Positions 27,297 through 30,572 of a DNA stretch of 64,000 nt are shown here, one piece after another; position 1 is the first letter of the stretch, and each line of letters opens with the position of its first letter. A program made the translations under genes and the position numbers. Origin of the DNA: an uncultured Candidatus Saccharibacteria bacterium (GTDB lineage: Bacteria; Patescibacteriota; Saccharimonadia; Saccharimonadales; EFPC-124); the NCBI GenBank assembly GCA_964550035.1, contig CAZJVU010000001.1, forward strand, positions 83,990-147,989, read 5' to 3'. Below the pieces are notes generated by a model, which did no database searches, was not told the origin of the DNA, and was given only the letters and a program-made list of their open reading frames with translations.

Positions 27297-27374
27297 GGCG
27301 GACGTAGCTCAGTTGGTTAGAGCGCTGGATTGTGGCTCCGGAGGCCGTGGGTTCAAGACCCATCGTTCGCCCCA
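27297..27374 (+). tRNA. tRNA-His (anticodon GTG) with encoded G-1 and CCA
   Basis: G-1 opposite discriminator C, anticodon loop TTGTGGC, T-loop TTCAAGA. Confidence 0.88.
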
Positions 27375-29468: not shown

Positions 29469-29582
29469 TTACGTGAGTACGATACGCCCTAGGTCCCATG
29501 AAGTGACCATGCCAAAGACAGCAATGCCGCCGGTAAGTGCGGTTGCCATACGTTGGTTATGATTTGGGCGATATCGTTTCAT
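29469..29582 (-). CDS. 37-aa basic/hydrophobic micro-protein (MKRYRPNHNQRMATALTGGIAVFGMVTSWDLGRIVLT)
   Basis: Own TTTACA-N16-TGCTATACT promoter 9 nt upstream of the ATG (includes GGAG), plus a downstream hairpin. One predicted TM helix. Confidence 0.45.
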   Translation of the reverse strand: MKRYRPNHNQRMATALTGGIAVFGMVTSWDLGRIVLT

Positions 29583-29619: not shown

Positions 29620-29691
29620 TACAGTGTTTTATTTTGTGGTATAGTAATTATATTCGTGGCGTACTTGTTACGAAGTACTGAGGAGGCGGTT

Positions 29692-30084
29692 ATGAGCATG
29701 CAGGAGACCCCTGAGGCTCAACTGGCAGATTTTCGAGGCCCCTTTTACCCCTTGACGATCGAGGAGGTCGCCAAGGCCTACGTGGGATGCGGTAACCTGG
29801 ATGCTTCCAGGGTGGAACTCGCCGCACGTCGTGGCTACGCGTTCCATTCCATCAGGTGGAATGTCATCACCCAAGACGGCTACCAGTGGTACGCAGTAGC
29901 GACATTTGGTCTCGTTGGTGGGAGGGGAGCAATTGCCCTACCGCGGGCGCGAGACCTCAACAGGCGGGACAACGTTCCGCTTGACCGTTCGCCAGCCGTC
30001 TACCTGAAGGGGACGGTTTCTACGCGGGATGCAGCTCGGATCGCGGAACGATTCGCCCGAGCCCTGCGCAGTGTGCAGGGCTGA
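29692..30084 (+). CDS. hypothetical protein, paralogue A (high-GC3 unit 7)
   Basis: GAGGAGG SD. TGGTATAGT extended -10 at 29637-29645. Shares LDRSPAVY, KAY and YP motifs with the next gene. Confidence 0.65.
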   Translation: MSMQETPEAQLADFRGPFYPLTIEEVAKAYVGCGNLDASRVELAARRGYAFHSIRWNVITQDGYQWYAVATFGLVGGRGAIALPRARDLNRRDNVPLDRSPAVYLKGTVSTRDAARIAERFARALRSVQG

Positions 30085-30103
30085 GTCAGAAAGGAACCTG
30101 TTC

Positions 30104-30499
30104 ATGAGCCTGAACCAAGTGGCCGAGGCGAACCTCGATGGTTACGGCCCGCCCATCTACCCGCAGGCTGAGATCTGGAGCCTCACAAAGGCGTACACCT
30201 CACAGGGGCCGGAGGGCTTCATGGCGAGGACGTTGGATGCGGCGGCCAGAGCCTGCCACGGTTTCGACACGGCCAGCCGAGTCATCCGGACATCGGACGA
30301 CTACGTCTGGCGTCGGATCATCGAGTTCAAGTTCCAGGGTAAAGCCCGGGTGGCAGTAGCCTTTCCGGGCGCTCGAAGGAACGACTGCGATGGCTCGCAG
30401 CTCGACCGTTCGCCGGCCGTCTACATCGCGGGCGGCGCAACGGAGACGCTCGCCAAGGCTGTGCTGGTGGCGCTCGCGAGAACTCTGTACCGCCGCTGA
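30104..30499 (+). CDS. hypothetical protein, paralogue B (high-GC3 unit 7)
   Basis: GAAAGGAA SD. Collinear similarity with 29692..30084. Confidence 0.65.
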   Translation: MSLNQVAEANLDGYGPPIYPQAEIWSLTKAYTSQGPEGFMARTLDAAARACHGFDTASRVIRTSDDYVWRRIIEFKFQGKARVAVAFPGARRNDCDGSQLDRSPAVYIAGGATETLAKAVLVALARTLYRR

Positions 30500-30512
30500 C
30501 GCACACACAACT

Positions 30513-30550
30513 GGCCCGGGGCAGAAAGCAAACTGCCCATGCCCCGGGCC
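30513..30550 (+). terminator. GC-rich hairpin
   Basis: GGCCCGGGGCA/TGCCCCGGGCC 11-bp stem. No U-tract. Confidence 0.6.
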
Positions 30551-30572
30551 GGTGCAACACCTATGAAATTAT

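Follow-up and report, generated by a model that had tools for sequence, protein, structure and literature searches.

Tandem Genes A and B of a Saccharimonadales Bacterium Belong to an Uncurated Family of Small Proteins with a Confidently Predicted Fold

In this report, we describe two adjacent genes, denoted here as A and B, found within a 64,000-nucleotide stretch of DNA (the window) from an uncultured Candidatus Saccharibacteria bacterium of the order Saccharimonadales (contig CAZJVU010000001.1). The two genes were found to be tandem paralogues from a family of proteins of approximately 130 amino acids; none of the curated libraries that were searched (Pfam, NCBIfam, PADLOC, PHROGs, and the PDB) contains this family. 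The fold of these proteins is confidently predicted by AlphaFold2, yet the models match no solved structure. Within the Saccharimonadales the family has expanded into a tandem array of variable copy number, and the rate of evolution of A and B is 4-6 times that of the syntenic neighbors, with both genes still under purifying selection. With roughly even confidence, we interpret A and B as soluble cytoplasmic binding modules that would act in pairs, would use a conserved acidic and aromatic pole of the protein for binding, and would be sub- or neo-functionalized derivatives of an ancestral copy.

Genes A and B and the Family to Which They Belong

Gene A (positions 29692-30084, forward strand) encodes a protein of 130 amino acids that starts with MSMQETPEA and is classified here as the A-type paralogue. 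Gene B (positions 30104-30499, forward strand) encodes a B-type protein of 131 amino acids that starts with MSLNQVAEA. The initial annotation of this DNA had proposed that the two genes are tandem, collinear paralogues. In a BLASTP comparison the two proteins were found to be 35% identical over 129 aligned residues with 5 gap positions and an E-value of 1e-15, a similarity far beyond chance that identifies A and B as true collinear paralogues. The motifs that had been listed as common to both proteins are all present, and those in register are the initial MS, EA.L, P.YP, KAY, D.Y.W, P.AR, and LDRSPAVY; the single departure is the "GP" pair, which is offset by one column. The coding sequence for LDRSPAVY forms a 25-nucleotide direct repeat at 29979-30003 and 30400-30424, in which 23 of the 25 nucleotides (92%) are identical. 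Both copies use rare-choice codons for the arginine (cgt) and the serine (tcg) of this motif, and the three copies found in the related locus L004 differ in their codons at the same place. This codon match, over a stretch too short for a test, may stem from gene conversion or just from codon bias.

Neither protein was found to contain a signal peptide or a transmembrane segment, as had been noted from the sequence at the outset; the maximum Kyte-Doolittle value for a 19-residue window is 1.05 for A and 1.40 for B. A high GC content at third codon positions had been ascribed to both genes. This is correct for gene B (0.81), but the value for gene A (0.66) is within the range of the neighboring genes (0.58-0.75), and thus only B is distinctive in a genome with a GC content of about 55-60%. 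The calculated isoelectric points of A and B are 9.8 and 9.3, respectively. Across the family this property is bimodal with a median of 6.3, and there is thus no consistent charge signature of a DNA mimic or of a nucleic acid-binding protein.

The extent of the family emerged only with sensitive searches. A word-indexed search with A retrieved only A itself, the same search with B retrieved three relatives, and a profile built from the syntenic copies retrieved 20 proteins. An exhaustive hidden Markov model search of 1.84 billion cluster representatives (clusters at 50% identity) identified 573 clusters at E <= 1e-3, with 320 of them reaching E <= 1e-10; nearly all of the proteins are 120-150 amino acids in length and align from end to end. 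The members are described by the signature MS..Q(H)..A.L.G..GP.FP ... T.DGY.WFW.L.F ... PW.QDW...DG...DRS[PI]AVY, and S2, P17, D62, Y64, W66, P84, D88, D98, R99, and A102 are conserved in at least 90% of 147 sequences. The motif LDRSPAVY had been taken as the mark of the family. It is found in both A and B but is the form of a more general DRS[PI]AVY that is seen in Saccharimonadales and other members of high GC content, and the members of low GC content carry DRSIAVY.

Genes A and B both depart from this signature in the same loop. Gene A retains T60, D62, Y64, W66, P84, D88, D93, D98, R99, S100, A102, and Y104, with W85, Q87, and W89 replaced by R, R, and L, respectively. The corresponding loop of gene B reads G-A-R-R with W89 deleted, and this one-residue deletion results in the loss of D88; W85 and Q87 are thus absent from both proteins. 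The other B-type copies retain the QDW sequence. A frameshift was considered as the cause of the aberrant loop in B and was rejected by inspection, since QDW is restored in neither of the alternative frames.

That no known family was recognized at first remains true of the curated libraries, but the pair is not isolated, as there are at least 573 clusters of relatives. Neither A nor B matched any entry of Pfam-A 2025 or NCBIfam 20.0 at the curated cutoffs. When 147 members were searched singly, no family was matched by more than two of them (Pfam at E <= 1, NCBIfam at E <= 0.1), and the family consensus sequence gave no match in Pfam. A match of residues 103-129 of A to the BON domain (PF04972; E = 0.0074, 17 bits against a cutoff of 27 bits) was dismissed as a chance match; it is confined to the final strand and helix, it was obtained for one of the 147 members, and A is without a signal peptide or a membrane context. 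No sequence in the PDB matched the family, and PADLOC-DB 2.0 gave no match at E <= 0.1 for eight members. Searches of PHROGs, IMG/VR viral contigs, INPHARED phages, and PLSDB plasmids returned nothing with one or a few queries each, a design of limited sensitivity. A literature search returned no papers on the motifs of the family and nothing relevant on tandem paralogues in Saccharibacteria.

The hosts of the family are uncultivated bacteria and DPANN archaea. A scan of GTDB with the canonical-subfamily alignment and a single peptide pattern, which under-samples the taxonomic breadth, identified two genomes, namely the metagenome-assembled genomes (MAGs) of a Saccharimonadales bacterium and of an Aenigmatarchaeota archaeon. 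The neighbors of the family gene in the latter are archaeal (DUF63 and FEN-1/XPG). A scan of GTDB genomes with a single protein gave no match.

Outside of the Saccharimonadales the gene is essentially single-copy, and its surroundings were surveyed in 45 metagenome loci. In the archaeal contig L012 (positions 6-2647) it is found between genes for TFIIB (446 amino acids) and a NUDIX hydrolase, followed by a cytidylyltransferase, all in one direction; the family gene overlaps both of its flanking genes by 4 nucleotides, and no other operon as tightly coupled was seen for the family. The bacterial loci place it near a class A penicillin-binding protein, LeuRS, and GlmS (L043, a 433-kb contig), near DnaB, HisRS, and a Ctp protease (L019), or near a sigma-54 activator and FtsX (L041). 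A Pfam search of 94 neighbors from 40-odd loci identified no family in more than two loci and no recurrent toxin domain.

Departures from the single-domain architecture are rare. Proteins P0030 and P0080 are tandem fusions of two family domains, the second of which lacks the MS tail, and some members carry C-terminal tails that resemble coiled coils. Protein P0130 (1382 amino acids; its cluster is found on at least 24 contigs) has a family domain at its extreme N-terminus and a CHAT caspase-like protease (E = 5.7e-38) at its C-terminus, with approximately 950 residues that resemble helical repeats in between. This is the only such architecture among the 150 best matches. P0166-P0168 (1119 amino acids) from the same cluster were called from an internal methionine and hence lack the family domain. 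The domain is otherwise always found at the true N-terminus; the longer "N-terminal extensions" of some members still contain the MS internally and appear to stem from mis-called starts.

AlphaFold2 models were obtained for A (mean predicted local distance difference test score, pLDDT, of 88.9; predicted template modeling score, pTM, of 0.85) and for B (pLDDT 93.5; pTM 0.89). Both models share the same alpha+beta order. It opens with an extended N-terminal tail and a short strand, continues with two helices, a meander of three strands, and a loop of approximately 18 residues, and closes with a fifth strand and a 17-residue C-terminal helix. The tail comprises the first 14 residues and begins with the near-invariant Met-Ser. 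Foldseek searches found no significant match in the PDB (best E-values of 0.11 for A and 0.14 for B; TM <= 0.36) or in BFVD (best E-value of 0.045; TM <= 0.38). The low-probability matches that recurred were to START/PYL helix-grip proteins, profilins, and the alpha/beta domain of beta-lactamases. The order of the elements in the models resembles a shortened helix-grip fold, which we treat as a lead and not as a result. On the predicted topology, T60, D62, and Y64 in the beta2-beta3 turn, the P84-W-x-Q-D88-W segment that follows beta4, and D98-R99-S100 immediately before beta5 should be located at the same end of the sheet.

Array Dynamics and Evolutionary Rates in Saccharimonadales

The gene order around A and B is also found on several metagenome contigs and on a Candidatus Saccharimonadales MAG from GTDB (L010). 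In these loci the slot adjacent to the gene for a major facilitator superfamily (MFS) transporter contains a variable number of family genes. A single copy is present in L058; there are two copies in the window, in L005-L008, and in the contig that carries P0013; and three copies are present in L003, L004, and L056/L057. L010 also has two copies, on a contig that ends before the MFS gene. The third, B-type paralogue is shortened in the public gene calls for L003 (P0004, 87 amino acids) and L004 (P0005, 75 amino acids). A full-length reading of 130 amino acids is available at 2277-2669 of L003, from a GTG, and at 9836-10228 of L004, from an upstream ATG. The conserved N-terminal sequence MSMRR indicates that the longer form is correct in both. 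Upstream of the three-gene array of L056, positions 2443-2577 contain a 44-codon remnant of a family gene, MSMERHPQAKFRTWRGPLFPNAALIQLANVLRDRRRRGWPLGLE, closed by a stop codon, and two copies of that array are without the DRSPA loop. The remnant is direct evidence for the birth and death of genes at this locus.

Three types of copy were distinguished in a neighbor-joining tree, in which the X-type copies are nearest to the outgroups and the A-type and B-type copies form derived clades. The X-type copies retain the full signature, including WFW and PWAQDW. No X-type copy is present at the window locus, and the 64-kb window contains no third family copy. With X missing and the promoter abutting A, a chimeric X/A origin of gene A was considered; it was rejected by inspection because residues 21-30 of A are A-type-like and do not resemble those of X-type copies.

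Substitution rates were determined from pairs of orthologues because the synonymous divergence between A and B is saturated (dS = 1.66) and the ratio of nonsynonymous to synonymous rates (dN/dS) between the two copies is uninformative. Against L004, the genes that flank the array encode proteins that are 79-90% identical with dN values of 0.06-0.12, and six of these flanking genes gave dN/dS values of 0.05-0.10; the HD hydrolase gene gave no valid dS. The corresponding values for gene A are 48% identity, a dN of 0.43, and a dN/dS of 0.31, and those for gene B are 55%, 0.42, and 0.49, respectively. The other orthologous pairs gave dN/dS values of 0.24-0.47.

Expression Signals and Neighboring Genes

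The proposal that the two genes constitute one operon was borne out by the 19-nucleotide distance between them, together with a promoter, two Shine-Dalgarno sequences, and a shared terminal hairpin. The extended -10 element TGGTATAGT (29637-29645, forward strand), already noted in the initial annotation, can be read directly in the sequence. It was missed by a scan for the sigma-70 consensus because there is no matching -35 element. The pattern TGTGnTATAGT is nevertheless invariant in five syntenic Saccharimonadales loci, though the upstream sequence carries indels and varies in spacing. Gene A is preceded by the expected Shine-Dalgarno sequence GAGGAGG (29680-29686, forward strand), 5 nucleotides before the ATG, and gene B by a Shine-Dalgarno-like AAAGGA (30090-30095, forward strand), 8 nucleotides before the ATG.

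The 5'-untranslated leader of approximately 40 nucleotides contains a stem-loop region (29653-29678, forward strand) with two alternative folds. The 6-bp inverted repeat GTACTT/AAGTAC (29661-29678), originally described as the leader hairpin, does exist, but a 9-bp hairpin that overlaps it (29653-29674) is the predicted optimum. The leader fold has a predicted free energy of -10.6 kcal/mol (z = -1.5), and neither hairpin is more stable than expected from shuffled sequences (z from -0.6 to -1.5). Hairpins of different sequence are found at the same position in L003, L004, L005, and L010, none of them significant singly, which suggests that some 5' stem-loop is probably functional.

Downstream of gene B, a GC-rich hairpin with arms at 30510-30523 and 30540-30553 (no strand assigned) separates B from the convergent gene for a zinc-dependent alcohol dehydrogenase (Zn-ADH). 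It is strong (-34.6 kcal/mol; z = -5.1), with a stem of 14 bp rather than the 11 bp first noted, and it is conserved, with a compensatory double substitution in L010. A U-tract follows it on neither strand. The hairpin is probably a bidirectional terminator or a stabilizer of 3'-ends. Taken as read from these signals, A and B would be carried on a single transcript with the conserved extended -10 element, a short structured leader, one ribosome-binding site for each gene, and the shared terminal hairpin.

The gene order in the window is HD hydrolase, MFS transporter (reverse strand), A and B (forward strand), Zn-ADH (reverse strand), sortase, polysaccharide deacetylase, a GT2 glycosyltransferase, and a second sortase; no gene with a toxin domain is found among these neighbors. 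Between the MFS gene and gene A there is a 37-codon open reading frame, MKRYRPNHNQRMATALTGGIAVFGMVTSWDLGRIVLT (29469-29582, reverse strand), that is transcribed away from A and B. It has a GGAG Shine-Dalgarno sequence, a promoter-like site TTTACA-16-TG-TATACT (29619 to 29592, reverse strand), and a strong terminator (29437 to 29416, reverse strand; -21.2 kcal/mol, z = -5.4). This reading frame is present in every syntenic Saccharimonadales locus (46-69% identity) and in none of the other loci that were fetched, and it has no match in Pfam. The product has a hydrophobic center and may be a small membrane peptide; its tie to A and B is positional only. A tRNA-His (GTG) gene, one of six tRNA genes in the window, is located at 27298-27374 beside the HD hydrolase gene, approximately 2.3 kb upstream of A and B. 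The region is syntenic in the relatives, and nothing points to an integration site at this tRNA gene.

Possible Functions of A and B

Our interpretation starts from the near-invariant polar and aromatic residues, T60-x-D-G-Y-x-W, P-W-x-Q-D-W...D-G...D-R-S, and Y104, which would be gathered at one pole of the sheet in an otherwise soluble, cytoplasmic protein. We predict that a metal, a cationic ligand, or a partner would bind at this pole, possibly together with the free N-terminal serine. Metal binding is speculation; a DxDxDG calcium loop was considered and rejected, as the family consensus D88-W-[DE]-[KR]-x-D93-G94-x-x-x-D98 is one residue longer. The family is normally single-copy; in the Saccharimonadales the copy adjacent to the MFS gene has given rise to a birth-and-death array of one to three genes. 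The X-type copies would represent the ancestral state and A and B the derived state, with the genome of the window retaining only the latter two at this locus, each having lost part of the W.QDW loop. The combination of fast evolution, purifying selection, and partial loss of this loop points to sub- or neo-functionalization, and the existence of natural two-domain fusions (P0030 and P0080) suggests that A and B probably work as a pair.

Several observations weigh against this interpretation. The support for heterodimerization comes from two fusions among the 150 best matches, and the faster evolution of A and B could reflect relaxed constraint rather than a new function. The clustering of the conserved residues at one pole was derived from strand topology only, and the tree that places A and B as derived clades carries no support values. 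An X-type copy may lie elsewhere in the genome, outside of the 64-kb window. Finally, the loci surveyed outside of the Saccharimonadales contain no recurrent neighbor that could anchor a function, and an all-versus-all BLAST comparison of the neighbors gave redundant contigs only.

An arms race would account for the duplication and diversification if A and B were conflict-system proteins, either immunity- or antitoxin-like proteins or adaptor or sensor modules of a defense system. We consider this unlikely. The family genes form a tandem array that varies in copy number and has left a pseudogene remnant, much as the SUKH and Imm arrays of polymorphic toxin systems comprise small cytoplasmic proteins encoded by tandem, diversifying paralogues of variable number with decayed copies. 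The dN/dS values of A and B are 3-9 times those of the neighbors, and the proteins are small, cytoplasmic, and alpha+beta, like many immunity proteins. Genes for Fic/Doc and PIN-like proteins adjoin a few members of the family, and one family domain heads the 1382-residue CHAT protein. In CHAT/STAND conflict systems, an effector-associated adaptor is the same small domain present on the effector and on a STAND or other NTPase partner within one operon. The CHAT protein P0130 is a single effector fusion, one architecture among the 150 best matches, and no NTPase partner was seen in the 45 metagenome loci. The Saccharimonadales locus contains no toxin, nuclease, STAND NTPase, or other defense gene, there is no match to a Pfam Imm or SUKH family, the eight members searched in PADLOC (the CHAT fusion included) and the one or few queries each of phage, plasmid, and viral records and PHROGs gave nothing, and elsewhere the gene is mostly single-copy amid housekeeping genes (HisRS, LeuRS, DnaB, GlmS, and TFIIB). 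A sharply conserved constellation of polar residues would also be unusual in immunity proteins that are engaged in an arms race.

Three further proposals appear improbable to a similar degree. The conserved residues could form the catalytic site of a small enzyme, in which the N-terminal serine, freed by removal of the methionine, acts with the Asp/Arg cluster. Of 141 sequences, 134 have S2, the true N-terminus is in every case where the domain begins, and the conservation of D62, D88, D98, and R99 is 90% or more; but no likeness in fold or sequence to any hydrolase or transferase was found, the first 14 residues are modeled as an extended tail, the second domains of the fusions have no MS tail, B lacks D88 and both A and B lack W85 and Q87, and the high dN/dS is atypical of a housekeeping enzyme. 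We see equally little reason to regard A and B as accessory or regulatory partners of the divergent MFS transporter, of the 37-residue hydrophobic peptide, or of both. The divergent arrangement of the MFS gene and the small reading frame on one side and the array on the other persists across Saccharimonadales loci whose downstream genes are not the same (L056 has no alcohol dehydrogenase gene), and the divergent promoters share one control region of approximately 60 nucleotides. This linkage is confined to one order, however, neither the MFS gene nor the small reading frame recurs in the other 40-odd loci, and synteny among close relatives is weak evidence for a functional link. The helix-grip fold consists of a seven-stranded antiparallel sheet wrapped around a long C-terminal helix and encloses a ligand cavity, and there is a similarly slim chance that A and B are shortened versions of it (Bet v 1/START/SRPBCC-like) that hold a hydrophobic ligand with the sheet on one side and the C-terminal helix on the other. 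PYR/PYL receptors and MSMEG_0129 are likewise soluble alpha+beta proteins, of approximately 130-180 amino acids, with the same order of elements (strand, two helices, antiparallel strands, and a long C-terminal helix), many of the conserved residues of the family are aromatic, and START and PYR/PYL proteins are among the best, non-significant, Foldseek matches for both models and in BFVD. These matches have E-values of 0.12-0.5, probabilities of 0.08-0.33, and TM values of 0.23-0.32; moreover, 4-5 strands are predicted and not 7, none of the 147 members matched the Pfam families START, Polyketide_cyc, Bet_v_1, or AHSA1 at E <= 1, and the conserved residues are mostly charged and form an acidic and aromatic cluster at the predicted pole rather than the lining of a hydrophobic cavity. 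The suggestion that A and B are spurious reading frames or decaying pseudogenes, to which the lack of any annotation, the fast evolution, and the truncated copy in L056 might lead, is effectively refuted by dN/dS values below 0.5 in every orthologous pair, intact frames with Shine-Dalgarno sequences, hundreds of full-length homologues, and the very confident AlphaFold2 models.

In the tiny genomes of the Saccharimonadales and other members of the candidate phyla radiation (CPR) and DPANN groups, a large fraction of the genes is without known function, and CPR genomes commonly carry small, unnamed families. A much bolder reading of the family is one that we consider rather improbable. The family would then constitute a new fold and functional class common to ultra-small episymbionts among the CPR bacteria and DPANN archaea, the acidic and aromatic pole and the free N-terminal serine would bind a molecule derived from the host or partner, and the A/B/X array would be a host-interaction or conflict module of the epibiotic lifestyle. 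Apart from this, the family of A and B is unusually well defined, with hundreds of members in bacteria and archaea, a sharp signature, and confident models, and one order of symbionts carries it as an expanded tandem array that is diversifying rapidly. It is thus well suited to a new Pfam/DUF entry and to structural and biochemical work. The gain in annotation would be modest if the proteins are only generic small binding proteins, but should the conserved pole turn out to be a site for a ligand or a partner, the family would give access to an uncharted part of CPR physiology.

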